NCBI RefSeq assembly: GCF_016127575.1
Contig: NZ_CP066018.1
Coordinates: 3,420,001 to 3,452,000, forward strand
Direction of reading: 5' to 3'
Length of the DNA stretch: 32,000 nt
Source of the DNA: Cupriavidus necator
GTDB taxonomy: Bacteria > Pseudomonadota > Gammaproteobacteria > Burkholderiales > Burkholderiaceae
Part shown: positions 7,966 through 30,779 of the stretch, piece after piece
Layout of the letters: each line of letters opens with the position of its first letter
Numbering within the stretch: position 1 is the first letter of the stretch
Program-made: the position numbers and the translations under genes
Notes under the pieces: generated by a model
Databases searched by the model: none
What the model saw: the letters and a program-made list of their open reading frames with translations, nothing else
What the model was told of the DNA's origin: nothing

Positions 7966-7978
7966 GACGTGGGCTCCC

Positions 7979-9448: not shown

Positions 9449-9526
9449 ACCTTCCTGATGCAGTTGAACGTTGCACCGGAGTATGGAGGGCTATTTTTGG
9501 GGTGTCCAAGACCGTTGGCGTCTGAT

Positions 9527-9547: not shown

Positions 9548-9561
9548 CCGCCCGTTGCGCC

Positions 9562-10479: not shown

Positions 10480-10483
10480 GACT

Positions 10484-10520: not shown

Positions 10521-10625
10521 TGGACTGCCAAAACTGCCGTTGACTATGCTCCATCCGTGCCCGGAAGACAAGCTCGATACCTGCAAAGCATGAACCGGGA
10601 CCCAACCACAACTATGGAGACCCCC

Positions 10626-11549: not shown

Positions 11550-11653
11550 TTTTCCGCAATGCCGCCCGCCGCGCGGGCCGGTAGATCCAGTCCGGGCGGC
11601 AGCGCCATGCGCAGCGCCGCCCCGGCGACAAGACATCGGCAGGAGACAACTCC

Positions 11654-13087
11654 ATGATCCCCATCTATCCGGAGGGCAAGGCCCCCGTTCGCCCCGGCGC
11701 AAAGCGCCTCGACCTGGATACCTTCCTGGTGGAAGACAAGGCAAGCGGCGACTACCGGCTGCACCGCGCGGCCTTCACTGACGAAGAGCTGTTCGAACTC
11801 GAGATGAAGCACATCTTCGAGGGCAACTGGATCTACCTGGCGCACGAAAGCCAGATCCCGAACAACAACGACTACTACACCACCCATATCGGCCGCCAGC
11901 CGGTGGTGATCGCGCGCAATCGCCAGGGCGAACTGAACGCCTTCATCAACGCGTGCAGCCACCGCGGCGCCATGCTGTGCCGCCACAAGCGCGGCAACAA
12001 AGCCACCTACACCTGCCCGTTCCACGGCTGGACCTTCAACAACAGCGGCAAGCTGCTGAAGGTGAAGGATCCCGAGAACGCCGGCTACCCTGACTGCTTC
12101 AACAAGGAAGGCTCGCACGACCTGAAGAAGGTGGCGCGCTTCGAGAACTACCGCGGCTTCCTGTTCGGCAGCCTGAACGCTGACGTGCCGCCGCTGAAGG
12201 ATTTCCTGGGCGAAGCGGCGCGCGTCATCGACATGATCGTCGACCAGTCGGCCGACGGGCTCGAGGTGCTGCGCGGCTCGTCCACCTACACGTTCGAGGG
12301 CAACTGGAAGCTGCAGGCCGAGAACGGCGCCGATGGCTACCACGTGTCGGCGGTGCACTGGAACTACGCCGCAACCACCAGCCAGCGCAAGCAGAAGAAC
12401 GCGCAGGAAGACAAGATCCGCGCCATGGACGCCGGCAAGTGGGGCCAGCAGGGCGGCGGCTTCTACGCCTTCGAGCATGGCCACATGCTGCTGTGGACGC
12501 GCTGGGCCAACCCGGAGGACCGCCCCAACTTCAGCCGCCGCGAGGAATTCGCCGAGCGTTGCGGCGCCGAGACCGCGGACTGGATGATCCAGAACTCTCG
12601 CAACCTGTGCCTTTATCCCAACGTCTACCTGATGGACCAGTTCGGCTCGCAGATCCGCCTGCTGCGTCCGCTGGCCGTCGACAAGACCGAGGTCACCATC
12701 TACTGCATCGCGCCGAAGGGAGAATCCGACGAGGCGCGCGCGCGCCGCATCCGCCAGTACGAGGACTTCTTCAACGTCAGCGGCATGGCCACCCCCGACG
12801 ACCTCGAGGAGTTCCGCGCTTGCCAGCAGGGCTACGCCGGGCAGGCACTGGCCTGGAACGACATGTGCCGCGGCGCGAAGCACTGGATCGACGGTGCCGA
12901 CGAGGCCGCGCAGCGCATCGGACTCAAGCCCGTGATGAGCGGGGTGCGCACCGAGGACGAGGGCCTCTACACGGTGCAGCACCGCTACTGGCTGGACGTG
13001 ATGAAGAAGGCCGTGGCAGAGCAATCCGCCGAAGCCGCGAATGAAGCCACCGACACCACCGACGCCGCCGCAGGGAGCGCAGCATGA
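11654..13087 (+). CDS. benA: Benzoate 1,2-dioxygenase large (alpha) subunit, Rieske oxygenase
   Basis: Rieske motif CSHRGAMLC...CPFHGWTF. 477 aa, followed by beta subunit, reductase and diol dehydrogenase genes. Confidence 0.9.
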
Positions 13088-13599
13088 GCACCGCCGACAT
13101 CACCCTCGACCAACCGGTCGACATGGCCGCCATCCAGTCCTTCCTGTACCGCGAGGCACGGCTGCTGGATGACGAAGAGTGGGACGCATGGCTTGCGTGC
13201 TACCACCCCGACGCAAAGTTCTGGATGCCCTGCTGGGATGACGACGGCAAGCTGATCACCGACCCGCAGCGCGAGATCTCGCTGATCTATTACCCGACCC
13301 GCCAGGGCCTGGAGGATCGCGTGTTCCGCATCAAGACCGAGCGCTCCAGCGCCACCATTCCGGACACGCGCACCAGCCACAACCTGAGCAACGTCGAAGT
13401 GCTCGGGGTGGCGGGCGACACCTGCACCGTGCGTTTCAACTGGCACACGCTGAGCCATCGCTACCAGACCACCTACAGCTACTTCGGCATGTCGCGCTAC
13501 ACGCTCGACCTCTCCGGCGCGCAGCCGCGCATCCTGGACAAGTATGTCGTGCTCAAGAACGACTACATCAACCAGGTCATCGACATCTATCACATCTGA
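13084..13599 (+). CDS. benB: Benzoate 1,2-dioxygenase small (beta) subunit
   Basis: 171 aa with the SnoaL-like ring-hydroxylating beta-subunit pattern ([18 protein letters not shown]). ATGA overlap with benA. Confidence 0.88.
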
Positions 13600-14640
<1,041 letters not shown>

Positions 14641-14657
14641 GCAAGGAGCACGACAAC

Positions 14658-15443
14658 ATGAGAACTGCTACACGCTTTGCCGGCAAAGCCATGATCGTGA
14701 CCGGGGCCGCGCAAGGCATCGGCCGCGGCGTCGCACAGGCCGCCGCCGCCGAGGGCGCCTCGGTGGTGCTGGTCGACCGATCGGCGCTGGTCGATGAAGT
14801 CGCGGCGCAGATCGTTGCTGCGGGCGGGCAGGCCATCGCAGTGCACGCCGACCTGGAGCGCTATGCCGGCGCCACGCAGATGGCGCAGGCGGCCGAAGCA
14901 GCCTTCGGCCGCATCGACATCCTCGTCAACAACGTGGGCGGCACGATCTGGGCCAAGCCCTTCCAGGCCTATGAGGAGGACCAGATCGAAGCCGAGATCC
15001 GGCGCTCGCTGTTCCCCACGCTGTGGTGCTGCCGCGCGGTGCTGCCCGGCATGGTCGCGCGCCGGCAGGGCGTCATCGTCAACGTGTCGTCGATTGCCAC
15101 GCGCAGCATCCACCGCGTGCCCTACGCGGCGGCCAAGGGCGGCGTCAACGCACTGACGGCCAGCCTCGCCTTCGAGCATGCGCACGAAGGCGTGCGCGTC
15201 AACGCCGTGGCCACCGGCGGCACCGAGGCGCCGCCGCGCAGGATTCCGCGCAACATGGCAGCGCAGAGCGAGCAGGAGGCCATCTGGTACCAGGCCATTG
15301 TCGACCAGACCAGGGCCTCGAGCCTGATGCACCGCTATGGCACGATCGACGAGCAGGTCCATGCCATCCTGTTTCTCGCCTCGGACGAGGCTTCGTACAT
15401 TACCGGCACGGTCTTGCCAGTTGGCGGCGGGGATCAGGGCTGA
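14658..15443 (+). CDS. benD: 1,6-dihydroxycyclohexa-2,4-diene-1-carboxylate dehydrogenase (SDR family)
   Basis: SDR motifs TGAAQGIGRG and YAAAKGG. AAGGAG lies 9 nt before the ATG at 14658. An alternative ATG at 14637 overlaps the benC stop (ATGA). Confidence 0.85.
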   Translation: MRTATRFAGKAMIVTGAAQGIGRGVAQAAAAEGASVVLVDRSALVDEVAAQIVAAGGQAIAVHADLERYAGATQMAQAAEAAFGRIDILVNNVGGTIWAKPFQAYEEDQIEAEIRRSLFPTLWCCRAVLPGMVARRQGVIVNVSSIATRSIHRVPYAAAKGGVNALTASLAFEHAHEGVRVNAVATGGTEAPPRRIPRNMAAQSEQEAIWYQAIVDQTRASSLMHRYGTIDEQVHAILFLASDEASYITGTVLPVGGGDQG

Positions 15444-15552
15444 TGAGCCAGCGTCTGGGTGGAATCGATTGGAGCGCAGTCCGACCGCCGAGGGACTGCA
15501 GCGTGTTGCATTGTTCGGCTTACAGCCTTCATTGGCAGATAGGAGTCAGATC

Positions 15553-16248
15553 ATGACCAAGCCCTCGATCATTCTGGCGCACGGTTTCTGGGGAGGTGCC
15601 GCGCATTGGGGAAAAGTCATCGTTGAACTGGCGCGAAAGGGGTATACGAACGTCCGCGCCGTTGAAATGCCGCTGACATCGCTTGCTGACGATGTCGAGC
15701 GTACCCGCAAGATGATTGCCCAGCAGAAGGGGCCGGTCCTCCTGGTGGGGCATTCGTACGGTGGTGCGGTGATTACCCAGGCGGGTGACCAGCCCAATGT
15801 GGTGGGGCTTGTGTATATCGCGTCGTTTGCGCCAGATGCGGGGGAGAGCCCCGGTGGCATTACGCATCAGCATCTTCCGGTTGCGGCGCCCAATCTCGAA
15901 CCCGACAGCGACGGCTACTTGTGGCTCAAATCCGATAAGTTCCATGAGAGCTTCTGCCAGGATCTTTCGCCCGACGACGCGCTGGTGATGGCGGTGACGC
16001 AGAAGGCGCCGCTTGCAAGCACCTTCGGCGACGTCATCACGACGCCGGCCTGGAAAAAGAAGCCGTCCTGGTACCAGATTTCCAGCGAAGACAGAATGAT
16101 CGCCCCCGAAAACCAACTGAAGATGTCGGCCCGGCTCAATCCCCGGAAGGTCGTGACTCTGGCGGCAAGCCATGCTTCGCTGGCTTCGAAGCCAGCCGAG
16201 GTTGCAGCGTTGATCGACGAAGCCGCGACGGAGTCGGTCAGGGGATAG
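15553..16248 (+). CDS. Alpha/beta-fold hydrolase of unknown specificity
   Basis: MTKPSIILAHGFWGG...LVGHSYGG (GxSxG elbow). AGGAG lies 7 nt before the ATG at 15553. The track ORF start at 15337 is an upstream extension. Confidence 0.75.
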   Translation: MTKPSIILAHGFWGGAAHWGKVIVELARKGYTNVRAVEMPLTSLADDVERTRKMIAQQKGPVLLVGHSYGGAVITQAGDQPNVVGLVYIASFAPDAGESPGGITHQHLPVAAPNLEPDSDGYLWLKSDKFHESFCQDLSPDDALVMAVTQKAPLASTFGDVITTPAWKKKPSWYQISSEDRMIAPENQLKMSARLNPRKVVTLAASHASLASKPAEVAALIDEAATESVRG

Positions 16249-16319
16249 CGCCCTGAACGCCCCGCCGGACCAGTGCGCCGAACAGCGGAAAGCTGCACGG
16301 TCAAGGGGGAGCCCCCCGG

Positions 16320-17711
16320 CTACAGCATCGCTGAATGCAAGTGATGCGGATTATCGAGCGTTTCCGCGATGATCCGCAGCGACTCCTCGATCTCATCGCG
16401 CTCGCCCGGGCCGCCCAGGCAGACACGGATCGCATCGGGCGGGTTGCCGTCGGTCGAGAAGGCGGCGGCCGATACCGCGCCGATGCCGCGCGAGCGCAAG
16501 TGCAGCGCCAGTTCCGACGGGCTCCACGCTGAAGCCGCCGGGATCGGCAGCCACAGGTGAAAGCCCTCCGGGTCCGCGTCATAGGCCAGGCCCTCGAGCA
16601 CATGGCGCGCAATCAACTGCCGCGCCGCGCTTTCGGCGCGGATGGCCTTGAGCATGTCGTCCACCGTTCCGTCCTTGATCCAGGATGTAGCGAGCAATGT
16701 GTTGATGGGGCTCGCCATCACCGTCGTTGCCCGCAGGGTGCCAGCCAGGCGCTGCGCCTGCCGGGCGGTGGGGGCGTGCAGGAACGCTATGCGCAGCCCG
16801 GCGCCCAGGCATTTGGACAGGCCGGTGACGTAATACGTGAGTTCCGGGGCGAGCGCGGCAAACGTCTGTGGTGCCCGCAGCGGCAGCATGCCGTAGGCAT
16901 CATCCTCGATGATCGGCACGCTGTAGCGCAGCGCGACTTCGGCGAGCTGCTCGCGGCGTGCCTGCGGCATGGTGCGCGTGCTCGGGTTCTGGATGGTCGG
17001 ATTGCAATAGAGCGCCGCCGGCTTCTGTGTCTTGCACATGGCTTCGAAGGCGTGGGCGAACGGGCCATCCTCGTCGCCGGGCAGCGCCTGTAGCTGGATA
17101 TTGAGCTGCGCGGCGATGGCCTTGATGCCGGGGTAGGCCAGCGCGTCGGCACAGATGGTCTGCGCCGGCCGTGCGAGCTGCGACAGCAGTGCAACCAGCG
17201 CGCTGTGGATGCCGGGCGTGACCAGCACGGTGTCCGCGCTGCATGCCGGCACCCAGCGGCGCAGCCATTTCGCAGCAACCGAGCGATCGGCCGGGGTTCC
17301 GCCGAAGTCCTGGTAGCGCAGCAGCGTGTAGGGATCGGCAGCCTCCAGCAGTTGCGCCATGGCGGAACGAAGCCGCGCTGTCATCGCGGGCGGCTCCGGC
17401 GGCATGTTCATGGACATCTCCGCACCCGTGCCGCCGCGCAGCGGCATCGCGGGCGCACGTCCGCGCACGTAGGTGCCACTTCCTGTCTTGGTGTCGATCA
17501 ATCCCCGCTTCCTCGCTTCACTGTAGCCGCGCGCCACGGTGGTGTAGTTCAGTTGCAGCGCTTCGGCCAGGTCGCGCAGCGGCGGCAGCCGGTCGCGCGC
17601 GCGCAACTGGCCGTCGGCCAGTGCCTCCTCGATCAGGTCCGGAATCAGTAAATAGGCCGGCTTGGCACTGCCGGCGATACGTTTTACCCAATGGCTGGTC
17701 AGGTTGGACAC
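16320..17711 (-). CDS. MocR/GabR-type regulator: GntR winged-helix domain fused to a fold-type-I aminotransferase-like PLP domain
   Basis: N-terminal LPPLRDLAEALQLNYTTVARGYSEARKRGLI, and a C-terminal aminotransferase-like region with YVTGLSKCLGAGLRIAF (putative PLP lysine). The probable start is a GTG at 17711 with GGAGA 5 nt upstream. Confidence 0.8.
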   Translation of the reverse strand: MSNLTSHWVKRIAGSAKPAYLLIPDLIEEALADGQLRARDRLPPLRDLAEALQLNYTTVARGYSEARKRGLIDTKTGSGTYVRGRAPAMPLRGGTGAEMSMNMPPEPPAMTARLRSAMAQLLEAADPYTLLRYQDFGGTPADRSVAAKWLRRWVPACSADTVLVTPGIHSALVALLSQLARPAQTICADALAYPGIKAIAAQLNIQLQALPGDEDGPFAHAFEAMCKTQKPAALYCNPTIQNPSTRTMPQARREQLAEVALRYSVPIIEDDAYGMLPLRAPQTFAALAPELTYYVTGLSKCLGAGLRIAFLHAPTARQAQRLAGTLRATTVMASPINTLLATSWIKDGTVDDMLKAIRAESAARQLIARHVLEGLAYDADPEGFHLWLPIPAASAWSPSELALHLRSRGIGAVSAAAFSTDGNPPDAIRVCLGGPGERDEIEESLRIIAETLDNPHHLHSAML

Positions 17712-18021
17712 CGTGGTCTCCCGCTGCGCGATGCGATGGCATTCAGTGCCCTGAGGGTAGCACCCGAATGATCGCTTACCAAGCCGCACAAGCGATTGCA
17801 TCAGAAGTTCTCAATGATGGTGCGATATCAGCGCGGATGCACCACGCGTGCGCACCAGGCGGCTGGTTCCCGTTCAAAAATGTGCATTGTGGCGAAGCCG
17901 TCATGGCGTGCGCTGTGCGCCTTTGGTGGCATCCATGGCCAAAGCCGTTGCGATCATTGGGCCGATCATTTGGTCGGCTTCGGCTTGATTGGAGATTGAT
18001 CGCATGACTGCGGGCATTGCG

Positions 18022-18036
18022 TGGCACATCGGTTGC
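18022..18036 (+). promoter_or_regulatory. Sigma-54 (RpoN) -24/-12 promoter TGGCAC-N5-TTGC upstream of the Nit1C-type operon
   Basis: tggcacatcggttgc was read directly. The match to the GG-N10-GC core, with flanking consensus bases, is exact. It lies 90 nt upstream of the first ATG (18126) in the correct orientation. Confidence 0.7.
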
Positions 18037-18125
18037 GGATGTTGGCGTGTTCGGCCTGGCGCCGAACGGTCGATCGGCAAGGGATCGGTCGGCCGCACTG
18101 CCCCATCAACGCAACGGAGAGAAGC

Positions 18126-18608
18126 ATGCCTGCTGTCAGCAAACCGGCCCACAAGAAGGGCGATTTCCTGGTCGACTATGAAGAGAAGGTATTCGAGGAC
18201 GTAAAGGCCGAAGCCGGCGAGAAGGCGCTGGTGACCTTCCACACCGTCGCCTTCGAAGGCTCGATCGGCTTCGTCAACATGCTGCAGGCCACGCGCCTGC
18301 TGCGCAAGGGCTTCGAGACCTCGATCCTGCTGTACGGCCCCGGCGTGAACCTTGGCGTTCAGCGCGGCTTCCCGACGCTTGGCGACGAGGCATTCCCCGG
18401 GCATATGAACTTCAACAAGCAGCTCACCAAGTTCATGGACGAGGGCGGCAAGGTCTACGCCTGCCGCTTCGCCCTGCAGGCCCTGTACGGCCACGGCGAG
18501 GCCTCGCTGATCGAGGGCATCCGCCCGATCAATCCGCTCGATGTGCTCGACCTCAAGCTGCTGCACCGCAAGGAGAACGCGCTGATCATCGATACCTGGA
18601 CGGTCTGA
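18126..18608 (+). CDS. Small conserved protein, first gene of Nit1C-type clusters (MSMEG_0572/Sll0783-like; NitB in Pseudomonas nomenclature)
   Basis: [23 protein letters not shown]..., 160 aa. GGAGAG lies upstream of the ATG at 18126. The assignment rests on position and on remembered family resemblance. Confidence 0.65.
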
Positions 18609-18628
18609 GCGAAAGGGCAGGTGCCACC

Positions 18629-19645
18629 ATGTCACAGAAACGCATTGTGCGCGCGGCCGCGGTCCAGATCGCGCCCGACCTCGAGAGCGGCGCAGGCACG
18701 CTGGCCAAGGTCTGCGAGGCGATCGACGAGGCCGCCGGGAAAGGCGTGCAGCTGATCGTGTTCCCGGAGACCTTCGTGCCGTACTACCCGTACTTCTCCT
18801 TCGTACGGCCGCCGGTGCACTCCGGCAGCGACCACATGCGGCTGTACGAGCAGGCCGTGGTGGTGCCCGGCCCGGTCACCGATGCCGTCGCCGGGCGCGC
18901 ACGCCGGCACGGCATGGTCGTGGTGCTCGGCGTGAACGAGCGCGACCACGGCAGCCTGTACAACACGCAGCTTATCTTCGACACCGAGGGCAACCTCGCG
19001 GTCAAGCGCCGCAAGATCACGCCCACCTTCCACGAACGGATGATCTGGGGGCAGGGCGATGCGGCCGGCCTGAAGGTCGCGGACACCGCGATCGGCCGCG
19101 TCGGCGCGCTGGCGTGCTGGGAGCACTACAACCCGCTGGCCCGCTATGCGCTGATGACCCAGCACGAGGAAATCCACTGCAGCCAGTTCCCGGGCTCGCT
19201 GGTCGGGCCGATCTTTGCCGAGCAGATCGAAGTCACGATCCGGCATCACGCGCTGGAATCCGGCTGCTTCGTCGTCAACGCCACCGGCTGGCTGACCGAA
19301 GCGCAGATCGCCTCCGTGACCACCGATCCGGCGCTGCAGAAGGCGCTGCGCGGCGGCTGCAACACTGCAATCATCTCGCCGGAGGGCCAGCACCTGGCGC
19401 CGCCGTTGCGCGAGGGCGAGGGCATGGTCATTGCCGACCTCGACATGTCGCTCATCACCAAGCGCAAGCGCATGATGGATTCGGTGGGCCACTACGCGCG
19501 CCCGGAACTGCTAAGCCTTGCCATCAATGAGCGGCCGGCGGCGACGGCAGTGCCGATGGCAGGCGCCTTCTCCAACTTCCATGGGAGTATCCGCGATGAC
19601 ATCCAGCGCGAGCGTGCCGGCTTCGAGCCGGCAATTGATGACTGA
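18629..19645 (+). CDS. Nitrilase (carbon-nitrogen hydrolase superfamily, Nit1C/Nit6803 type)
   Basis: Glu-Lys-Cys triad contexts [19 protein letters not shown] and [11 protein letters not shown]. 338 aa. Confidence 0.9.
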
Positions 19646-20741
19646 ACTGCAGTCCGTCGGGCTGCGCCTGGAAGACCCGAATGCCGGCGCGGCCAGCCGG
19701 CGCGGCGGGGCGGGTCCGTCCGATCACAAGGCGGTCACCATCGACGGCGTGACCATCATGGTGCCGGTGCATACCAGTACCGCGTGGCACTCGCCGTTCG
19801 TGGCGCATTCGCCCGACGGAACGGGGCGCAGCGCGCTGATGCGCGGCACCATCCCGATTGCCAGCATCAGCTTTCCGAAGGCGCCGCGTTTCCATGCGCT
19901 GCAGACCCTGGAGGGCATCCCGTACTCGCATATCGCCACGCTGCATGGCGCCGATGTGCTGGCCACCACGGTGCTGCAGACTTGCATCCGCTACGAGAGC
20001 CGCAAAAAGACCTGCAAGTTCTGCTCGATCGGCCAGTCGCTGGCGGCGGGCCGCACGATCGCGCGCAAGACGCCGGAGCAACTGGCCGAAGTGGCGCGCG
20101 CCGCAGTGCTGCTCGACGGCGTCAGGCATATGGTGCTGACCACCGGCACGCCGCCGACGCCGGACCGGGGCGCGGCTATTCTTTGCGAGAGCGCCTTCGC
20201 CATCAAGGCCGCGGTCGACCTGCCGATCCAGGCGCAGTGCGAGCCGCCCGACGACGACCGCTGGTTTGAGCGCATGAAGGCCGCCGGCATCGACACGCTC
20301 GGCATGCACCTCGAGGTCGTCACGCCGGCGCTGCGCGAGCGCATCATGCCGGGCAAGGCGGGGGTGCCTCCGAGCCGCTACATGGAAGCCTTCAAGGCCG
20401 CCGTTGCGGTGTTCGGCAGGGCGCAGGTCAGCACGTACATCCTCGCGGGACTCGGCGACACCGCGGAAGCCATCCTGTCGATCTCGCGCGAGCTGATCGA
20501 GCTCGGGGTGTATCCGTTCGTGGTGCCTTTCGTGCCGATCTCCGGCACGCCGCTGGAGGACCACCCGGCACCCTCGCCGGCCTTCATGCAGTCGATCCTG
20601 CAGCCGCTCGGCGCCATGCTGAGCGCCGCCGGCATGCGCTCGTCCGACATCAAGGCAGGTTGCGGCAAGTGCGGCGCGTGCTCGTCACTGGCCACCTACG
20701 AGCGCGAGGCGGCACTGGCGACCGACGGAGCGACATCATGA
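19596..20741 (+). CDS. Radical SAM-type protein (MSMEG_0568-like; NitD)
   Basis: Cys cluster C-x9-C-x2-C ([18 protein letters not shown]) plus C-terminal CGKCGAC. The ATG at 19596 has GGGAG upstream and overlaps the nitrilase by 50 nt. An alternative ATG at 19638 overlaps the nitrilase stop by 8 nt. Confidence 0.75.
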
Positions 20742-21292
20742 AAAGCGATCTCTGCGTCGAGGTGCCGGGCATCCCGATGTTCCGCATCCGCTGGGCGGAG
20801 CACACCTGGGAGGCGGAGCAGGCCTATCGCCTGCGCCAGGCCGTGTTCTGCGAGGAGCAGGGCATCTTTGCGGGCGACGACCGGGACGCGGTGGACGACG
20901 TGGCGCAACTGCTGGTGGCGGTGCGCTTCGAGCCGGAATTGCCCCGCCATCCCGGCACCGTGGTCGGCACGGTTCGCATCCATGAAAGCGAGCCGGGCGT
21001 GTGGTTCGGCTCGCGGCTTGCGGTGGATGCGGCATACCGAAGCCAGGGCAAGATCGGTGCGACGCTGATCCGCCTGGCGGTGAGCAGCGCCCACGCGATC
21101 GGCTGCCGGCGCTTCCTTGCGCACGTGCAGAGCCAGAACGTGCCCTTGTTCAGGCGCTTGCATTGGCACGTCCTGGCAGAGGAGACGCTGCTCGGGCGGC
21201 CTCACCACCTGATGCAGGCAGACCTGAACCATTACCCACCTTGTCATACGCCGCACGCGGGCCTGATTGCGGAAGGCAGGGCCGTGCGATGA
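20738..21292 (+). CDS. GNAT-family N-acetyltransferase (MSMEG_0567/Sll0786-like; NitE)
   Basis: ATGA overlap with the upstream stop. Contains the acetyl-CoA-binding-like segment RLAVDAAYRSQGKIGATL. 184 aa. Confidence 0.75.
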   Translation: MKSDLCVEVPGIPMFRIRWAEHTWEAEQAYRLRQAVFCEEQGIFAGDDRDAVDDVAQLLVAVRFEPELPRHPGTVVGTVRIHESEPGVWFGSRLAVDAAYRSQGKIGATLIRLAVSSAHAIGCRRFLAHVQSQNVPLFRRLHWHVLAEETLLGRPHHLMQADLNHYPPCHTPHAGLIAEGRAVR

Positions 21293-22284
21293 GCCTCGAC
21301 GACCTCGTACACACCTTGCGCAGCAGCCGGGGTTTTGCGCATAAGACCGATATCCCGGCCATGCTGTCGCCACTCGGCGCCGCGGCCACCGGACGCAACG
21401 CGGCCATGGCTGTCGATGTCGGCGACGACTGCGCGGCATGGCGGGATGGCGACGGCTACCTGCTGTTCGCCATTGAAGGACTGGTCAGTGATTTCATCCG
21501 CACGATGCCGTGGTTCGCCGGCTACAGCGCGGTCATGGTCAACATCAGCGATATCTATGCGATGGGCGGCAGGCCGACGGCCGTGGTCGATGCGCTATGG
21601 AGCCATGGCGCCGCCGACGCCGCTGAAGTGCTCAAGGGCATGGCAGCGGCGTCTGCCGCTTATGGCGTGCCGATCGTCGGCGGTCACAGCAACGCGCGCA
21701 GCGAGGAAAGCCAGCTTGCCGTGGCGATCGTTGGCCGGGCGCGCAAGCTGCTGTCGAGTTTCGCGGCGCGTCCCGGGCAGCGCCTGTTGATGGCGGTGGA
21801 CCTGCGCGGCGCGTTCGCGGAGCCGTACCCGTTCTGGAACGCATCGACGGGCGCGCCGGGCGAACGACTGCGCGCGGATCTCGAACTCTTGCCGGTGCTG
21901 GCCGAAGACGGCCTTTGCACCGCGGCCAAGGACATCAGCATGGCGGGTGCGCTCGGCACCGCGCTGATGCTGCTCGAATGCTCCGGGGTGGGCGCCAGCA
22001 TCGCGCTGGAGCGCATTCCGCGGCCCGATGGCGTGCCGCTGGAGCGATGGCTGACCGCATTCCCCAGCTATGGCTTCCTGCTGGCCGTCAATGACGACGA
22101 TGCGCAGGCGGTCGAACGCCGCTTCCTCGATCGCGGCATTGCCTGCGCCCAGATCGGCGCCATCGACGATTCCCGTGTCGCCACGCTCACGCACGCCGGC
22201 GAACGGGCCACGTTGTGGGACTTCCGCGAGGCAGGGTTCATCCTGCCGACGCGCCTGGCCACGCCGATCGATTCCCCAACCTGA
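21289..22284 (+). CDS. AIR-synthase-like (PurM/ThiL/HypE superfamily) ATP-dependent enzyme (Sll0787-like; NitF)
   Basis: ATGA overlap with the GNAT stop. N-terminal AVDVGDDCAA and NISDIYAMGG motifs are typical of the PurM-like superfamily. 331 aa. Confidence 0.78.
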   Translation: MSLDDLVHTLRSSRGFAHKTDIPAMLSPLGAAATGRNAAMAVDVGDDCAAWRDGDGYLLFAIEGLVSDFIRTMPWFAGYSAVMVNISDIYAMGGRPTAVVDALWSHGAADAAEVLKGMAAASAAYGVPIVGGHSNARSEESQLAVAIVGRARKLLSSFAARPGQRLLMAVDLRGAFAEPYPFWNASTGAPGERLRADLELLPVLAEDGLCTAAKDISMAGALGTALMLLECSGVGASIALERIPRPDGVPLERWLTAFPSYGFLLAVNDDDAQAVERRFLDRGIACAQIGAIDDSRVATLTHAGERATLWDFREAGFILPTRLATPIDSPT

Positions 22285-22292
22285 GACCTGCC

Positions 22293-22580
22293 ATGCCAGT
22301 TACCTATTTCCGCATCCGCTGGCCTGACCAGACCGAGATGGCCTGCTATTCCCCATCCTCCATCGTCACGGAGCACTTTGCCGAAGGGGCGGCGTATCCG
22401 CTGGACGAGTTCGTCGAGCGCGCGCGTACCGCGCTGGGCGCCGCTTCCGAGCGGGTGCGTGCCAGGTATGGCTACGCCTGCTCGTCCGCGATGGACCAGC
22501 TCCGCATCCTGGAAATCGCCGCGCAGCGGTTCCGGGGCCAGGACGGCGCCACCGTCCGGTTTCTCGGCTTTGGCAGCTAG
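22293..22580 (+). CDS. Small conserved protein of Nit1C-type clusters (MSMEG_0570-like; NitG)
   Basis: MPVTYFRIRWPDQTEMACYSPSSIV..., 95 aa, 8 nt after the upstream stop. The assignment rests on position and remembered family resemblance. Confidence 0.6.
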   Translation: MPVTYFRIRWPDQTEMACYSPSSIVTEHFAEGAAYPLDEFVERARTALGAASERVRARYGYACSSAMDQLRILEIAAQRFRGQDGATVRFLGFGS

Positions 22581-22615
22581 CCGTTCTTCAAATTCCTCGC
22601 CTTAAAGGATCCAAC

Positions 22616-23902
22616 ATGTCCAACGTCATCTACACCAATCCGGACCAGGCCGCAGAACCCAGGCACTACGGCGTCATCATTGTCGGCGGCGGCCAGGCCG
22701 GACTATCGATGAGCTACTTCCTGAAGCAGGCCGGCATCGATCATCTCATCATCGAGAAGCACACCGTCACGCATACCTGGCGCACGCAACGCTGGGATGC
22801 GTTCTGCCTGGTGACGCCGAACTGGCAATGCGCGCTGCCGGGCTATCCCTACCAGGGTGATGATCCGCACGGCTTCATGAAGAAGGATGAGATCACGGCC
22901 TATCTCGATGGCTTTATCCGGACGGTCGGCGCACCGGTGCTCGAGCACACCGAGGTACGGCAAGTGAAGGCGCGCGCTCAGGGGGGATTTGCCGTGGTGA
23001 CGAGCCAGGGTGCATTCACCGCAGACCAGGTGGTGGTGGCCTCGGGCGGTTATCACACGCCGATCGTGCCGCGCATGGCCGAGCGCCTGCCGGCGTCGGT
23101 CCGGCAGCTGCAATCGTCCGAATACAGGAATCCCGAGTCGCTGCCCGAGGGTGCGGTGCTCGTGGTTGGCTCGGGCCAGTCGGGCGCGCAGATTGCGGAA
23201 GACCTGCACCTGGCCGGCCGCAAGGTGTACCTGGCCGTCGGCGAGGCGCCGCGCTGCGCGCGCTTCTATCGCGGGCGGGACGTCGTGGACTGGCTCGCGG
23301 ACATGAAATACTACGACCTGCCGGTCACCGAGCATCCGCTGCGCGAGGGCGTTCGCGACAACACCAATCACTATGTCACCGGCCGCGACGGCGGGCGCGA
23401 TATCGACCTGCGCAGGTTTGCCACTGAGGGCATGGAGCTCTACGGCTTGCTCGACGACTACCTCGAAGGCCAACTGCGTTTTGCGCCGGACCTGCGTCGC
23501 AACCTGGACGATGCCGATGCGACTTACAACCGCATCAACGCGAGCATCGACAAGTTCATCGCGGAGCGAGGTATCGAGGCGTCGCCGCCGAGCGTCTATG
23601 AGCCCGTGTGGACGCCGCCGGCCGAGCGCACCGAACTTGATCCTCAGGCAGCCGGCATTGGTTCGATCATCTGGTGCATCGGCTTCCGGCCGGACTTCAG
23701 CTGGCTCGAAGTGCCGGTGTTCAACGGCCGCGGCTATCCGGGCCACGAACGTGGCGTGACCGCGCACGCCGGCCTGTACTTCCTTGGCCTGCCCTGGCTG
23801 CACACGTGGGGATCGGGGCGATTCTCCGGCATCGCGCGCGACGCCGAGTACCTGGCCGCCCTGATCGCCGCAGGCCGGGGCGACACCGCGCTGGCCGCCT
23901 GA
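22616..23902 (+). CDS. FAD/NAD(P)-dependent oxidoreductase, flavin-monooxygenase-like (MSMEG_0569-like; NitH)
   Basis: Two dinucleotide-binding motifs, VIIVGGGQAGLS and VLVVGSGQSGAQIA. 428 aa. Confidence 0.85.
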   Translation: MSNVIYTNPDQAAEPRHYGVIIVGGGQAGLSMSYFLKQAGIDHLIIEKHTVTHTWRTQRWDAFCLVTPNWQCALPGYPYQGDDPHGFMKKDEITAYLDGFIRTVGAPVLEHTEVRQVKARAQGGFAVVTSQGAFTADQVVVASGGYHTPIVPRMAERLPASVRQLQSSEYRNPESLPEGAVLVVGSGQSGAQIAEDLHLAGRKVYLAVGEAPRCARFYRGRDVVDWLADMKYYDLPVTEHPLREGVRDNTNHYVTGRDGGRDIDLRRFATEGMELYGLLDDYLEGQLRFAPDLRRNLDDADATYNRINASIDKFIAERGIEASPPSVYEPVWTPPAERTELDPQAAGIGSIIWCIGFRPDFSWLEVPVFNGRGYPGHERGVTAHAGLYFLGLPWLHTWGSGRFSGIARDAEYLAALIAAGRGDTALAA

Positions 23903-23903
23903 C

Positions 23904-24736
23904 ATGGAAGCCGTCGTCTCGCGCCATGTGGCCGGCATGCCCCAGTTGGCATACACCGGCCTGTCAGAGAACTGGCTGCTGAAGACCTGCGGCGACCTGC
24001 ACTGGCGCCTGCTGGCCGCCGGCGCCGGCCTGGGGGTGCCGGACTTCCGCGATGCCGAGGGCAATCCGGTGTATGCGGCGTTCACCGCGATCCGCGTGCG
24101 CGACGCCGCGCCGCAAACGGTCGGCGAGCACGCCGGGTTCAGCATCGGTTCGCACATCGTGCCAGCGGGTGGCGTGAAGCACCTCAGCGAACATGCGGTC
24201 GACATGCATGGGGACTGCCGCGCCAGCGTGACGATGCTGTCCACCTTCATCCGCCGCACGCGTGACCGGGACAACCGCTCGGTCGTGCGCACCATGCCGA
24301 CCGTGGCCGCGCAGTGGGCCGGCGCCGGCCCGTCGGCACAGGCGGCGGAACTGTCGCTGCTGGCACGGCGTTTTCGCGGCGGGGATTGGGGCATGCATCT
24401 CGGGCTCGATCAGGCCCGGCATCGCGTCTGCCACGCCGCCGAGTACCTGCCGTGCCCCTGCAACGACTTCAATGGCGCCGACCTGCTGTACTTCGCCAGC
24501 TTCCAGGCCATGGTCGATCGCGCGGAATGGCAATGGCGCCGCGACGCGGATCCGCCCACGGTGTTCGCGCGGGACCTGTTCTTCCATGGCAACGTCAATG
24601 TCGGCGAGTCGCTGGAGCTGATCTTCTCCGCGCTGCGCGAGGACGAGGAAGGATTGACGCACTGGTGTGAGATCCGGCGCAGCCGCGACGGCGAGAAGAT
24701 CGCAGATGTGGTCACGCAGAAGCGGTGGAGGCAACG

Positions 24737-24740
<4 letters not shown>
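23904..24740 (+). CDS. Double hot-dog-fold protein, LnmK / Pnap_2097-like (tentative)
   Basis: Starts 1 nt after the flavoprotein stop. Two hotdog-like halves each open with a helix-type motif (GLSENWLLKTCGDLHWRLL and DFNGADLLYFASFQAMVDRAEWQW). The family name is from memory. Confidence 0.5.
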
Positions 24741-26815
<2,075 letters not shown>

Positions 26816-27007
26816 GCGTGACGTCCTCGATCGCCACGTCGCCCACCAGCATGTAGCCGGGCGCATGCGTGATACACAGCGGCAGCAGCGCCTGCACGGC
26901 CGCGGCCAGAGGCGTGCCGCCTGGATGGCGATGCTTCCGCTTGCTGAGATGTCCGACAACCGGGTCGCGACCTTCCCGCGTTTCGTATTTGCACCAGAAC
27001 CTTCGCC

Positions 27008-28063
27008 CTACCGCGTGGCGAACGCCAGCCGCGGTGGCGCTTCTGGCACCGCGCAGCGAACGCGCCGGTCGCGCTCCGGCAGTGTCAGCTGGGTACGTGG
27101 CGGCGCGGCTCGCCGCACGCCGAGGATTTCGGCTACATTGGCTTGCGGGCGGAGCAGCGGCCGCAGCAGCGAGGCGGGGCCTGTGAGCAGCGGCGTCACG
27201 CCCGGGCCGTGCCCGCTGACCGTGCTGTCGCCGTGTACCACGACGCCGATGGTCACGCGGTCATTGGCGTAGCGCGGCCCCCGCCGCGTATCGGCGCCGA
27301 TGATCGCCACCATGTCGCCGAAGCGCAGGCTGCCCAGACGGTAGCGCTCACGTGCCTGCCGGTCCGACAGCTGGATATCGTAATCCCCGCGCCATGCATT
27401 GTTCTTTCCCAGTCCGGAGCCCATGACGCGCGCCGGCACCAGATGCGTGACCGGCGCATGGAGCTGGCCATCGCGCTCCAGCAGGCCCCATCGCGCCAGC
27501 AGGCGCGGCGAGCAGTTGAGGACTTCGATTCGGGGGTAGTCGCGGAGTCGTAAGCCCAGTCCATGCGAAAGAACCTGGATGCGGTCGCCGATGCAAAGGC
27601 GCACCAGCACCTCCGTGGGAAAGTCCACCAGCACGTGGTTGACGCCGCCGTGCTTGCCCGTCACCACACCAGTCCGGCCCGCGCACGCTCCGTTGACCAC
27701 ACGGGCCGGATTGCCGACGCAGGCATAGGTCAGCAGGGCGCTGTTGGGTCCGTCGCGTGGGCCGACGATCTCGCGCCCGTTGTTGTGCAGGGCGACCCCC
27801 GGCTCGATATGGTCGCCCGCCAACCCGACGCAAGGATCGCCGATGCGCCTATTGACCACGATGCCGCCGGTACCCGGCAGGACGCGCGGCACGCCGTCGT
27901 AGCCAATGCGGTAGGGCGAGGCGCGCCCCACGGGATGCGCGATCTGCCCAAGGACGGACACCGCCACGAGTTCGTCGGCATTGATTCGGGGAACGGGGCG
28001 TGCACCGTCGCGGCCGGCCGGACGGGACAGGGCTTGCTGGACGAGCGGAATCGGGCGGGACAT
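27008..28063 (-). CDS. DUF4438-like protein (function unknown)
   Basis: The SPYRIGYDGVPRVLPGTGGIVVNRRIGDPCVGLAGDHIEPGV segment resembles what I remember of DUF4438 (the TM1086 family). The ATG at 28063 has GGAG 9 nt upstream. An alternative ATG at 28072 directly abuts the GGAG. Confidence 0.55.
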   Translation of the reverse strand: MSRPIPLVQQALSRPAGRDGARPVPRINADELVAVSVLGQIAHPVGRASPYRIGYDGVPRVLPGTGGIVVNRRIGDPCVGLAGDHIEPGVALHNNGREIVGPRDGPNSALLTYACVGNPARVVNGACAGRTGVVTGKHGGVNHVLVDFPTEVLVRLCIGDRIQVLSHGLGLRLRDYPRIEVLNCSPRLLARWGLLERDGQLHAPVTHLVPARVMGSGLGKNNAWRGDYDIQLSDRQARERYRLGSLRFGDMVAIIGADTRRGPRYANDRVTIGVVVHGDSTVSGHGPGVTPLLTGPASLLRPLLRPQANVAEILGVRRAAPPRTQLTLPERDRRVRCAVPEAPPRLAFATR

Positions 28064-28075
28064 GGGTGCCATCTC

Positions 28076-28750
28076 CTATCGCATCCTGCGCACCACGGTG
28101 GCGGCGATCTGCGGCTGTCCCGGCGCGCGCCGGTTCTCGGCCGCGACGGCGTCGTAGATGGTGTGCGCGATATGGTGCAGCTCCGCATCGGTCACGCGTC
28201 CGCTGACCTGATAGAACAGGCGCACGCGCTGCGGCAGCCCGGGCACGGCGCTGGTCCGGGACTGGCGCATATGGCGCCGCACCTGGTCCATGTCGCGCAC
28301 CACCTGTCGCGCAAGATGGCTCAGGCGTAGCCGTCCGTTGGCGTCGCGGTAATCGGTTGCGTGTAGCAGCTTGCTTTCGAGGCCTGCCGGCAGGCGCTTG
28401 GGGGCAGCCGGCATCGGCGTGAGATCGAGCACCGAGCCGCCCCTGCGCGGGCCGATGCGGAGCTGGTTGCGCACATCGAAGCCGCGCAGGCACAGGCGTT
28501 CGACCAGGATCTGCTCGGCGCAACGGCCACGCAGGTTATTGATGACGATGAGCGCCGGACGCTGCCCGCGCGGCCGGGCCTCGGCGGCGGCCAGATCACG
28601 GCATGCCAGATGCCGGGCGCGCGAGGCCGGCAGGCATTCGTTGCGGCCGACGGCAGGGTCGGCATCCCCGGCGCGTCCGCGCTCGCGCGTCCAGTGCCGA
28701 ACGGCATCGTCAAGCATGGCGTCGACGAACTGGTCGATTGCTGCGCTCAT
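28076..28750 (-). CDS. Hypothetical protein (224 aa)
   Basis: MSAAIDQFVDAMLDDAVRHW... The ATG at 28750 forms an ATGA overlap with the upstream gene's stop. The track ORF extension to 29068 was rejected. No family was recognised. Confidence 0.55.
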   Translation of the reverse strand: MSAAIDQFVDAMLDDAVRHWTRERGRAGDADPAVGRNECLPASRARHLACRDLAAAEARPRGQRPALIVINNLRGRCAEQILVERLCLRGFDVRNQLRIGPRRGGSVLDLTPMPAAPKRLPAGLESKLLHATDYRDANGRLRLSHLARQVVRDMDQVRRHMRQSRTSAVPGLPQRVRLFYQVSGRVTDAELHHIAHTIYDAVAAENRRAPGQPQIAATVVRRMR

Positions 28751-29613
28751 GCTTCGGCTCCTTGCGGGGCCGGTGTGCCGATCGCCGGAGTGGGGCAAAG
28801 GGGATACCACCAGGCGGTGGCTTGCTGCCAGGGGTCGGCATGATGGCCGGTCCCGACCAGCGGGCCATCGACGCAAGCATGGTGCGGCGACGACGCCATT
28901 ACATGCAGCGCGGCCAGCCTGGGCAGGCGTTCGGCGAGCCCGGCCACTCCTGCCGCTGCCAGTGCGTCGCGCAGCAGCGAGCGCTCGGCGCCGAACAGGG
29001 ATTCGGAAGGCAGCGGGTCCAGATGCCGCACGTCGACGCCGCTTCGCCACAGGGCATGCACCGGCCACGGTGCGCCGTCACCATCAAGCGTGGTCAGCAC
29101 GATGGCGGCATCGAGCGTGGCGGAGAGTGCGAGCGTGTCGAGGGCGATGGCGAGCGGATCCCACCAGGGGGAGGGCATTGGGCCGAGCGCCGGCCTTGCC
29201 CCCTCGCAGCGGCGCAGCAGGGCGTCGAGCAGGACCTCGTAGCGCTCGACCACGGCATGGTCGGCAGCGTCGCCGAGCTGGGAACCGGCCACGTTGTCTC
29301 CGACCCAGCGAAACGGCCACGACGCGGCATCGGTGCAGTCGCGCATCGCGATCCACGCAATCAGAGCGGGTTCGAGCGGCCTCGGCACGGCGCCGCCGCT
29401 GTCCAGTGCCGCGCCGTTGGCCGAGAGGCCTGGCAGTACCATCTCGCTCGCATCGATGACCTGCCAGAACGCGCGCGTGAGCCAGGGCTCCAGCACCCGC
29501 GTGAGCCGCAACGCCAGGCTCGGCCCCCAGGGCGACCCGAGCACCAGCGCGGGATCGAGGATGCAGGCGAGCTTGCGTTGCCGTACCGATACGATCATGT
29601 CCTCAGCATGCAT
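28747..29613 (-). CDS. Hypothetical protein (288 aa)
   Basis: MHAEDMIVSVRQRKLACILDPALVLG... GGAGA lies 9 nt upstream of the ATG at 29613. No family was recognised. Confidence 0.55.
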   Translation of the reverse strand: MHAEDMIVSVRQRKLACILDPALVLGSPWGPSLALRLTRVLEPWLTRAFWQVIDASEMVLPGLSANGAALDSGGAVPRPLEPALIAWIAMRDCTDAASWPFRWVGDNVAGSQLGDAADHAVVERYEVLLDALLRRCEGARPALGPMPSPWWDPLAIALDTLALSATLDAAIVLTTLDGDGAPWPVHALWRSGVDVRHLDPLPSESLFGAERSLLRDALAAAGVAGLAERLPRLAALHVMASSPHHACVDGPLVGTGHHADPWQQATAWWYPLCPTPAIGTPAPQGAEA

Positions 29614-29672
29614 GGCGGGGCGTCTCCGTGTCAGCCGCGGTCAGGGATGCGCAAATGTACGGCGCGCCACGG

Positions 29673-30758
29673 TCAGGCCGCAGCCTGCGGCACGCCGAGC
29701 ACGCTGTTCAGCGCGTGTGTCACGCCGGGGAATCCTCGGCCCTCGGGCGTCATCCGGTACGCGGCGACCCACGCTTCCGCGTGCGCGCCCATGGGCCGCA
29801 CCACGCTCTGGAACAGGATCGGATCGGTTGCGGTCTTGAAATCATTGTCCGCAACAAACTGCAGGATCCGCCGGCCGCTTTCGGCCATCTTGGCCCGTTG
29901 CGAGGGCTCGGCCACCCCGCCGAGATAGCGATTCGAGACGATCTCGACCACATCCCACTTGGTGTTGGCGTCAAAGGCCTTCTTGATGTCGGGCGAATCC
30001 AGCAGCTTGAGCACCTGGATCAGGTAATGCCCGGTTTCCATCGCGAGCGCGAAGATATTGCCGTAGGTAGACCGGTCCAGCGCATAGCGCAGGTCGAGCC
30101 CGATGCGCTGGATGGTGCCGACGCTGCCGAAGGGACGCTGGTCGATCAGCTGTCCGCCCCGGATGACTTCGCCGATCAGCAGATCGCGGAAGTACTGGCC
30201 CATCGCCACCATGAAGCCGACCATCTGGCGATGGAAATTGCGGTTGACCACTGCGCCGGCCGGGGCCTGCGCGGTGCCATAGTTGAAGGCGCGCCGATAG
30301 GCCACCATGCGGTCCTGCCGGGTGTAGCGCAGTGGCCGCCATTTTTCGAGCAGATAGAGTCCGCGCGCGCCGGGGCCGCGCTGGATGCGCATCTTCCCCA
30401 GGCGGAACAAGCGCAGCAGGGTCTCGACCACCTCAAAGATCTTCATGCGCTCGTGCTGATAGATAAAGTACAGCTCGGCAGCCGCATGCAACTGGCTCGG
30501 GATGATTGAATCGTCGAAGTCAGGCTGTACATAGGGATAGCCGATCTTCTCGAAGCCGACTGCCCCCTGAGGACCGAGGCCGAGCAGATCGAAGAAGCCT
30601 TCCTCCCCGCTGCCATTGGGTTTGGACAACAGTTCAGAGTAACGCTGCTCGAACTGCGAGGCGAAGGCGTCGCGCTGGTCGGGCGGCAGGCTGGCCAGCT
30701 GCTCCTGCAGAAAGGTCTCCCACAGGCGCTGAATGGTTTCGGTGGTCTGGAAGTTCAT
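29673..30758 (-). CDS. Hypothetical protein (361 aa)
   Basis: MNFQTTETIQRLWETFLQEQL... Its composition is balanced and globular (K, F, Y, I, N present), unlike the antisense frames. GGAG lies 6 nt upstream of the ATG, 21 nt after the upstream stop. No family was recognised. Confidence 0.7.
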   Translation of the reverse strand: MNFQTTETIQRLWETFLQEQLASLPPDQRDAFASQFEQRYSELLSKPNGSGEEGFFDLLGLGPQGAVGFEKIGYPYVQPDFDDSIIPSQLHAAAELYFIYQHERMKIFEVVETLLRLFRLGKMRIQRGPGARGLYLLEKWRPLRYTRQDRMVAYRRAFNYGTAQAPAGAVVNRNFHRQMVGFMVAMGQYFRDLLIGEVIRGGQLIDQRPFGSVGTIQRIGLDLRYALDRSTYGNIFALAMETGHYLIQVLKLLDSPDIKKAFDANTKWDVVEIVSNRYLGGVAEPSQRAKMAESGRRILQFVADNDFKTATDPILFQSVVRPMGAHAEAWVAAYRMTPEGRGFPGVTHALNSVLGVPQAAA

Positions 30759-30779
30759 GATGCGCTCCGTCGTCGGGGG

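Follow-up and report, generated by a model that had tools for sequence, protein, structure and literature searches.

The Nit1C cluster of Cupriavidus necator H16 as part of a nine-gene, nitrogen-starvation-induced unit with a sigma-54 type promoter and a probable propionyl donor

The DNA analyzed here is a 32,000-nucleotide (nt) stretch of the Cupriavidus necator genome (assembly GCF_016127575.1, contig NZ_CP066018.1, positions 3,420,001 to 3,452,000 of the forward strand), referred to below as the window; positions are counted from its first letter. At 18126-23902 its plus strand carries the Nit1C gene cluster, an object that is already known and annotated by name rather than a new kind of system. 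We find good support for a larger unit of nine co-induced, tightly packed genes, 18126-26815 (H16_A1957 to H16_A1949), preceded by a sigma-54 type promoter element. Most likely, we infer, the unit encodes a pathway that is induced by nitrogen starvation and makes or remodels a nitrogen-containing small molecule inside the cell, rather than a simple nitrile detoxifier, and this pathway probably uses a short acyl donor, a propionyl thioester. We put the probability of the overall explanation, a nine-gene Nit1C unit with a sigma-54 element serving a nitrogen-starvation pathway with a propionyl donor, at about 0.8. The identity, extent and regulation of the unit are well supported, and the reaction order and substrates are conjecture.

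Nit1C was defined in 2005 (PMC1199592). In 2021 it could still be written that ‘the biological function ... has remained obscure’ (PMC7815647), and in 2024 NitB and NitG were still given as unknown (PMC11049912). An earlier note on this DNA, made from its letters alone, likewise left the chemistry unassigned; we searched the literature by cluster name, family names and locus tags and found no assignment there.

Core genes and extent of the unit

Recomputing the open reading frames (ORFs) of 18126-23902 returned the seven consecutive plus-strand genes that the earlier note had listed, with the same coordinates, order and junction lengths: a 20 nt gap, an 8 nt overlap (50 nt if the upstream ATG of nitD is used), two 4 nt overlaps, and gaps of 8 and 35 nt. 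In a profile search each of the seven proteins scores above the curated cut-off of its own NCBIfam model, by a factor of 1.2-3.6 overall and of 1.4-3.6 for the six partners of NitC (TIGR04044, 04043, 04045, 04049, 04042 and 04046). NitB (18126-18608, 160 aa, H16_A1957) reaches 299.7 bits with TIGR04044 (cut-off 109.9), and NitC (18629-19645, 338 aa, H16_A1956) reaches 591.8 bits with TIGR04048 (cut-off 502.6). They are followed by NitD (19638-20741, 367 aa, H16_A1955; 593.1 bits with TIGR04043, cut-off 303.7), NitE (20738-21292, 184 aa, H16_A1954; 243.7 bits with TIGR04045, cut-off 68.5) and NitF (21289-22284, 331 aa, H16_A1953; 504 bits with TIGR04049, cut-off 321.3). The last two are NitG (22293-22580, 95 aa, H16_A1952; 123.9 bits with TIGR04042, cut-off 79.9) and NitH (22616-23902, 428 aa, H16_A1951, annotated ‘trkA2’; 711.1 bits with TIGR04046, cut-off 498.4).

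The earlier note had identified the set with Nit1C, known by family names as MSMEG_0567-0572 or Sll0783-0787, and had proposed the family models as a check. With all seven proteins above the trusted cut-offs, the identity holds for every gene. The genes follow one another as B-C-D-E-F-G-H on a single strand, closely spaced, which is the proteobacterial Nit1C order of PMC1199592, and the protein encoded just downstream, at 23904-24740, is identical on AM260479.1, chromosome 1 of C. necator (Ralstonia eutropha) H16. The region is thus well supported as the Nit1C operon nitBCDEFGH of this strain. Pfam concurs on the superfamilies, with no Pfam match for the small proteins NitB and NitG. A NitD start at 19638 is preferred to the alternative at 19596 (381 aa), because the first residue covered by TIGR04043 is number 16 of the longer form, and NCBI also calls the gene from 19638. 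Third-position GC content (0.75-0.86) supports coding for NitB, NitD, NitF and NitH, the frames that were listed by this filter; NitC, NitE and NitG were not on its list.

The earlier note had read the tight junctions as those of one translationally coupled unit. The end that it gave, 23902, is only the end of nitH, and the unit runs on to 26815. One nucleotide after the nitH stop begins H16_A1950 (23904-24740, plus strand, 278 aa), a member of the Pnap_2097/LnmK family of bifunctional acyltransferase-decarboxylases. Its best model is the Pnap_2097 subfamily TIGR04099 (373.4 bits, cut-off 125), ahead of the LnmK model TIGR04098 (339 bits, cut-off 100). Its match in the PDB is LnmK (4HZO/6X7L; E 4e-8). 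This alignment matches up the NPxY..F motif and places Tyr57 and Phe60 opposite the catalytic Tyr62 and Phe65 of LnmK; both residues are invariant in 18 family members. H16_A1949, annotated sbm2 (24737-26815, plus strand, 692 aa), overlaps H16_A1950 by 4 nt (ATGA), with GGTGGAGG directly before, and encodes a single-chain B12-dependent methylmalonyl-CoA mutase (CoA, coenzyme A) that scores 978.5 bits with NF006944 (cut-off 876) and contains the Pfam MM_CoA_mutase and B12-binding domains. In the PDB it is closest to human MUT (719 bits, compared with 396 for HCM and 262 for IcmF); by these scores the product is a true methylmalonyl-CoA mutase and not an isobutyryl- or hydroxyisobutyryl-CoA mutase.

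The arrangement recurs in other genomes. With the LnmK-like protein as single query, 14 genome loci were retrieved from Cupriavidus, Ralstonia and one metagenome-assembled genome (MAG) of Acetobacteraceae (37% identity). This genome-collection scan yielded mostly close relatives, and wider sampling came from plasmid and metagenome collections. All 14 loci have the LnmK-like gene after nitH with the whole of nitB-H upstream; in 13 it follows directly, and in the Acetobacteraceae MAG after a gap of about 1 kb. The mutase gene comes next in 12 of the 14. The same nitH/LnmK-like/mutase layout is annotated on a Paraburkholderia plasmid, and an Agrobacterium plasmid has it without the mutase. In Agrobacterium, C. 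campinensis and the Acetobacteraceae MAG the LnmK-like gene trails nitH even though the mutase is absent. The family is not exclusive to Nit1C: a Thalassospira copy lies in a cluster with an acyl-AMP ligase, an acyl carrier protein (ACP) and a P450.

Induction by nitrogen depletion

A published RNA sequencing (RNA-seq) study of strain H16 by Shimizu et al. names the cluster H16_A1949-A1957 as induced about 90- to 300-fold by nitrogen depletion, once ammonium has run out, without recognizing it as Nit1C (PMC3734047). In Table S2 of that paper eight of the nine genes are among the 11 most induced genome-wide, with log2 changes of 6.4-8.2, and the products and their order match the genes of the window in reverse genome orientation. 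The most induced gene in the genome is A1954, the ‘acyltransferase’ NitE, at log2 8.24 (from 18 to 5295 reads per kilobase per million). It is followed by A1957 (NitB, 7.81), A1956 (the ‘carbon-nitrogen hydrolase’ NitC, 7.71), A1950 (the LnmK-like protein, 7.58), A1955 (the ‘biotin-synthase-related’ NitD, 7.55), A1953 (NitF, 6.92), A1951 (NitH, 6.67) and A1949 (the mutase, ‘sbm2’, 6.44). The co-induction of A1950 and A1949 with the nit genes supports adding both to the unit. The earlier note had named RNA-seq without co-transcription as evidence that would speak against it; the published data, from the same strain, show co-induction, which does not by itself prove a single transcript.

The position after nitH in other lineages

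A second view of the slot after nitH comes from metagenomes. The set used here and below was seeded with NitH and contains 80 loci, with a bias toward relatives of the query. Among the 52 loci with at least 1.5 kb of sequence downstream of nitH, six have an LnmK-like gene, three an AMP-binding gene and 43 unrelated genes; where no acyl module is present, the downstream genes include a histidine kinase, an Lhr helicase, a hydantoinase and a 3-deoxy-D-arabino-heptulosonate 7-phosphate (DAHP) synthase. The Klebsiella plasmid pK2044 and an Acetobacter plasmid each carry an AMP-binding gene whose start overlaps the nitH stop or directly adjoins it; among the NCBIfam models both gene products match propionate-CoA ligase best (443 and 527 bits), ahead of acetate-CoA ligase. 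Non-homologous modules, LnmK-like protein plus mutase in one case and a PrpE-like ligase in the other, thus share one slot, and both point to the supply of a propionyl thioester.

The pK2044 copy (NC_006625.1, 150659-159590) is on a hypervirulence plasmid and has a complete set of MocR gene and nitB-H, followed by the PrpE-like acyl-CoA ligase gene. As many as 374 plasmid records from Klebsiella and 30 from E. coli contain NitB homologues with 85.6% identity.

Another accessory gene occupies a different position: a glycosyltransferase of the MSMEG_0565 family (TIGR04047) separates nitF from nitG in 36 of 53 metagenome loci and in two further loci (L017 and L023), and is absent from this window. 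No transporter gene is present within the core cluster. In the Acetobacteraceae MAG (11330-12253 of its locus, L016) a transporter gene of the Vut_1 family stands shortly after the LnmK-like gene, which may be coincidence; Vut_1 is the YhhQ-type family, importers of the nitrile preQ0.

Promoter and regulator

A sigma-54 type -24/-12 element, TGGCACatcggTTGC, occupies plus-strand positions 18022-18036; the nitB ATG is 104 nt farther downstream. The element is the single exact match to TGGCAC-N5-TTGC in the 32 kb window, where 0.09 matches are expected by chance, and its GG and GC are 10 nt apart. The pattern GGCA[CT]-N5-TTGC is kept in all 10 beta-proteobacterial orthologous regions and is absent from two alpha-proteobacterial ones. 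A promoter scan found no sigma-70 promoter upstream of nitB. PMC3734047, citing Brigham et al., reports that nitrogen-stress genes of H16 carry sigma-54 promoters. By its sequence and conservation the element is well supported as a predicted sigma-54 promoter of the nit unit.

Two further footprints stand out in the 10 orthologous intergenic regions. Immediately upstream of the promoter, at 17950-18006, are direct repeats, two copies of CGATCATT and two of TTGATYGS, which we regard, by inference only, as candidate MocR boxes. Farther upstream, about 180-200 nt from the -24/-12 element, a conserved block contains an inverted repeat, GGTGCG-N14-GCACCA (17819-17844), a candidate enhancer or regulator site. 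As an NtrC site this repeat was rejected, being a poor fit to the enteric NtrC consensus.

The divergent neighbor is a minus-strand gene at 16320-17801 for a MocR-type regulator, with a GntR winged helix and a fold-type-I aminotransferase-like domain (Pfam GntR and Aminotran_1_2); an alternative start at 17711 would give 463 aa, and the gene is presumably H16_A1958. The best NCBIfam match of the protein is EhuR-like, at 394 bits, below the cut-off of 480. A MocR gene keeps this divergent position in all 14 genome loci and on the Paraburkholderia, Agrobacterium and Klebsiella plasmids, and MocR is also found in Acetobacter. In the metagenome set it precedes nitB in 20 of 27 informative loci, and NitA is present in one of the 27; Acinetobacter plasmids carry NitA. 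A gene for a 231-aa alpha/beta-hydrolase (15553-16248) stands between benD and the MocR gene, among the Cupriavidus loci only in H16; on the Acetobacter plasmid, too, an alpha/beta hydrolase gene adjoins the MocR gene.

Individual core proteins

NitC shares about 70% identity with the crystallized Nit6803 and scores 500 bits against PDB entry 3WUY. In that alignment Glu47, Lys129, Glu136 and Cys163 take the catalytic positions, within the motifs FPE(47)T, RK(129)ITPT and AC(163)WEH. By sequence, NitC is a bona fide nitrilase of the Nit6803 family (subfamily 1).

NitD, of the MSMEG_0568 family, lacks the canonical CX3CX2C motif of radical S-adenosylmethionine (SAM) enzymes; a 7-sequence alignment has instead the invariant spacing Cx9Cx2C (C116-x9-C126-x2-C129), together with C201 and C342-x2-C345-x2-C348. 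Despite this spacing the protein passes the Pfam Radical_SAM model (53.8 bits, cut-off 29.5) and the variant_rSAM model NF045502 (159.6 bits, cut-off 125), and is therefore a variant-motif member. The four further invariant cysteines, C201 and the C-terminal Cx2Cx2C, suggest a second iron-sulfur cluster. The sole PDB relative found by sequence is HydE, and the match is weak.

NitE belongs to the GNAT family and matches Pfam Acetyltransf_1 and FeeM, the N-acyl amino acid synthase model (32.4 bits, cut-off 27). NitF is a member of the sll0787 family of AIR-synthase-like, ATP-dependent enzymes (PurM superfamily; AIR, aminoimidazole ribonucleotide), related to methanogenesis marker 2, ThiL, SelD and PurL. 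The domain models TIGR04045 and TIGR04050 imply that NitE and NitF are fused in mycobacteria. NitH is a flavin-dependent oxidoreductase of the MSMEG_0569 family, resembling class-B flavin monooxygenases (FMOs), with the bacterial FMOs 4USR and 4A9W as PDB relatives.

The two small proteins are less easily placed. NitB, of the MSMEG_0572/Sll0783 family, has one invariant cysteine, C113, and a 28-sequence sample shows no variation at 95 of its 160 positions; the best 120 database clusters, drawn from many proteobacterial families, all have 84-92% identity to it. Such conservation is unusually high for an uncharacterized 160-aa protein and far exceeds that of its operon partners. Because all retrievable homologues are this similar, the AlphaFold2 (AF2) model computed from the 28-sequence alignment is unusable (predicted local distance difference test, pLDDT, 47). 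The literature places NitB in a YchN/DsrE-like group (PMC6039565, PMC1199592). Our match to Pfam DsrE (E 0.018, 15.7 bits) is below the cut-off of 22.7, so that NitB is possibly DsrE/YchN-like; sequence and profile searches of the PDB gave only spurious matches to designed ankyrin repeat proteins (DARPins) and antibodies. NitG, of the MSMEG_0570 family, has the invariant cysteines C18 and C63 and a confident AF2 model (pLDDT 85.7). No fold relative was found for it in the PDB: the best Foldseek match has an E value of 1.8, and a PDB sequence search gave nothing meaningful.

Proposed pathway and its alternatives

In the pathway that we propose, the mutase would convert succinyl-CoA to (2R)-methylmalonyl-CoA, and the LnmK-like enzyme would decarboxylate it, keep the propionyl group on Tyr57 and hand it to an acceptor. 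The model for this step is LnmK, which decarboxylates (2R)-methylmalonyl-CoA, with the propionyl group held on Tyr62 and the enolate stabilized by Phe65 (PMC11350588). H16_A1950 is accordingly predicted, by analogy, to be a (2R)-methylmalonyl-CoA decarboxylase and propionyl transferase, and the adjacent, overlapping mutase gene lends this prediction support from context. In the Klebsiella and Acetobacter clusters the PrpE-like short-chain acyl-CoA ligase would supply the thioester instead. The most likely consumer of the propionyl group is the FeeM-like NitE, in view of its similarity to FeeM and of the fusion with a PurM-like domain in mycobacteria. NitF might then use ATP to activate an amide or carbonyl oxygen (chemistry of the PurM/HypE type), NitD, with two clusters, might functionalize a C-H bond, and NitH might spend NAD(P)H on the oxidation of a heteroatom. 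NitC would hydrolyze a nitrile to the acid and ammonium, and the small cysteine-bearing proteins NitB and NitG may act as carriers or scaffolds. The earlier note had already favored a small-molecule pathway over mere nitrile detoxification, a view strengthened by the accessory genes for the glycosyltransferase, the PrpE-like ligase, and the LnmK-like protein and mutase.

Several observations weigh against parts of this explanation. An acyl module of either kind follows nitH in only nine of the 52 informative metagenome loci, so that the core chemistry does not depend on it. The PrpE-like ligases fall well short of the PrpE equivalog cut-off of 955 and could act on another short acid, even the product of the nitrilase, and NitE could use plain acetyl-CoA. 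No ACP, ketosynthase or 3-hydroxy-3-methylglutaryl-CoA (HMG-CoA) synthase is encoded among the ORFs of the window, which leaves the LnmK-like enzyme with no evident acceptor. The nitrilase is the sole member with a known activity, and its efficiency in vitro is poor (PMC7815647). As for the unit itself, H16_A1952 (nitG) is missing from Table S2 of PMC3734047, the RNA-seq data give co-induction rather than proof of one transcript, and no intrinsic terminator was detected after 26815 by a terminator scan or by folding of 26790-27030 (z-score 0.94). With regard to the promoter, none of the window genes encodes an AAA+ sigma-54 activator, and the neighboring regulator is of the MocR type, not NitA. 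A sigma-54 promoter requires an AAA+ activator, and MocR proteins are not such activators.

Alternatives have been weighed against the same data. Nit1C might serve catabolic nitrogen scavenging, in which NitC is the key enzyme, releasing ammonium from nitriles or cyanohydrins (for example, from cyanide and 2-oxoacids), and the other proteins are helpers. Nit1C is indeed genetically linked to growth on cyanide (PMC11049912, PMC7815647), its induction coincides with nitrogen exhaustion (PMC3734047, PMC6039565), and NitC is by sequence a bona fide nitrilase. We consider this possible and, on balance, unlikely: a Nit1C nitrilase had no useful cyanide activity and low efficiency on all nitriles tested, and the authors of that work doubt nitrogen provision as the main role (PMC7815647). 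The core cluster moreover has no uptake system and contains enzymes that consume SAM and ATP, and the recruited glycosyltransferase and acyl-supply modules are typical of biosynthesis. A rather improbable alternative is that the operon sets the NADPH/NADP balance during nitrogen starvation and in this way indirectly favors polyhydroxybutyrate (PHB) accumulation and peroxide resistance, with no specific end-product mattering. In Mycobacterium smegmatis the gpr cluster does raise NADPH/NADP and give peroxide resistance (PMC6039565), a Synechocystis sll0783 mutant is impaired in PHB accumulation (PMC3901256), and the C. necator cluster peaks in the PHB-production phase (PMC3734047). Such an account stays at the level of phenotype and leaves the enzyme set unexplained; an enzyme like a flavin monooxygenase would consume NAD(P)H, not make it. 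It is also compatible with a biosynthetic pathway rather than exclusive of one.

For the last two genes taken separately, it is quite improbable that they are an independent succinate-to-propionyl module like E. coli Sbm/ScpB, made for instance for 3-hydroxyvalerate units, and only by chance next to nitH. A mutase and a methylmalonyl-CoA decarboxylase form a known functional pair, as in the E. coli operon scpA-argK-scpB-scpC, and the genome annotation calls the mutase gene sbm2. Yet the adjacency is kept across beta- and alpha-proteobacteria with very short junctions, the LnmK-like gene trails nitH even without the mutase, both genes match nitB-H in the strength of their induction, and elsewhere the non-homologous PrpE-like gene occupies the same slot. 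No MeaB/ArgK chaperone or CoA-transferase gene was found in the window. A bolder version of the biosynthetic idea, which we regard as a long shot, is that Nit1C is a protein-templated route that makes or handles a carbon-nitrogen triple bond, with a logic like that of the hydrogenase cyanide ligand, and yields a new nitrogen-starvation metabolite or cofactor. The cysteines of NitB, NitG or both would carry the intermediate as a thioester or thioimidate. Loading of the propionyl group would fall to the LnmK-like enzyme or, in other lineages, to the PrpE-like ligase. NitE and NitF would carry out acylation and ATP-dependent dehydration in the manner of HypE, NitD, from the HydE/BioB/PylB neighborhood, would rearrange or cleave the intermediate, and the nitrilase would free the product. 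Our preferred explanation remains the nitrogen-starvation pathway with a propionyl donor outlined above.

Comparison with related systems

The closest counterpart by genes is the Nit1C cluster of Pseudomonas (nitABCDEFGH in P. oleovorans CECT 5344 and P. fluorescens NCIMB 11764), which has the same seven families in the same order on one strand, and is in principle sigma-54-dependent, as here. In Pseudomonas the sigma-54 activator NitA adjoins the cluster, whereas C. necator has a MocR-type regulator in its place and, unlike Pseudomonas, two extra co-induced genes after nitH. Evidence for a link to cyanide comes from Pseudomonas. The M. smegmatis gpr cluster (MSMEG_0565-0572) contains the same families and is massively induced by nitrogen starvation, more than 500-fold and in dependence on GlnR (PMC6039565); the corresponding regulation in C. 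necator would be by sigma-54 plus MocR. The gpr set also has the MSMEG_0565 glycosyltransferase, and its GNAT and PurM-like parts are joined in one protein, whereas C. necator has separate genes and no glycosyltransferase. Synechocystis sll0783-sll0787, the source of Nit6803, is likewise induced by nitrogen starvation and has a PHB-related phenotype (PMC3901256); it has no acyl-supply module, unlike C. necator, and cyanobacterial clusters open with the flavoprotein gene, which is encoded on the opposite strand (PMC1199592).

For the two additional genes the nearest parallel is the LnmK/LnmL route to propionyl-ACP in leinamycin-type polyketide beta-alkylation. H16_A1950 belongs to the same family and keeps the catalytic Tyr and Phe, and the isomer that LnmK uses, (2R)-methylmalonyl-CoA, is the one made by a mutase such as that encoded next to H16_A1950 (PMC11350588). 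Unlike the LnmK/LnmL setting, the surroundings of H16_A1950 include no ACP, ketosynthase or HMG-CoA-synthase cassette. The E. coli Sbm operon likewise combines a mutase with decarboxylation of methylmalonyl-CoA to a propionyl thioester; its decarboxylase is ScpB, with a crotonase fold, whereas that of C. necator would be a double-hot-dog protein like LnmK. A search of the literature for sbm2 and the neighboring locus tags found nothing relevant.

When Nit1C was defined, Podar et al. reported no conservation beyond the seven genes and no conserved upstream sites (PMC1199592). Both statements, on flanking genes and on upstream sites, can now be refined.

Neighboring genes

Downstream of the unit, and convergent with it, the minus strand carries an operon of at least seven genes that occupies 27008-32000 and runs past the window (13105-20837 in the longer locus L002). 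Its first gene encodes a DUF4438 protein; for the next five (224, 288, 361, 692 and 432 aa) neither Pfam nor PADLOC gives a match, and three of them tried on NCBIfam gave none. Third-position GC content indicates that the genes are real. The operon was rejected as part of the system, being absent beside Nit1C in 14 other genomes.

Upstream, positions 7183-15443 hold a full set for benzoate degradation and catechol ortho-cleavage: a pcaD-like lactonase gene, catC, catB, a BenM/CatM-type regulator gene, catA and benABCD. This set is ordinary and unrelated to Nit1C. Genes of acyl-CoA metabolism occupy 0.5-5.2 kb of the window.

Significance

Nit1C has been an orphan cluster since 2005, although it is found from cyanobacteria to mycobacteria and also on hypervirulence plasmids of Klebsiella. 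Published work connects it with the assimilation of cyanide, resistance to peroxide, the balance of NADPH and the accumulation of PHB. What the present analysis adds is the extent of the unit, the type of its promoter and regulator, the link to existing expression data, and the hypothesis of a propionyl donor, drawn from convergent accessory modules. The C. necator copy belongs to a genetically tractable model of PHB production, in which the locus is among the strongest responders to nitrogen depletion. Together, the extra genes here and their replacement elsewhere by a PrpE-like gene would give a concrete propionyl thioester hypothesis that can be tested by labeling, and may make an old question easier to attack.

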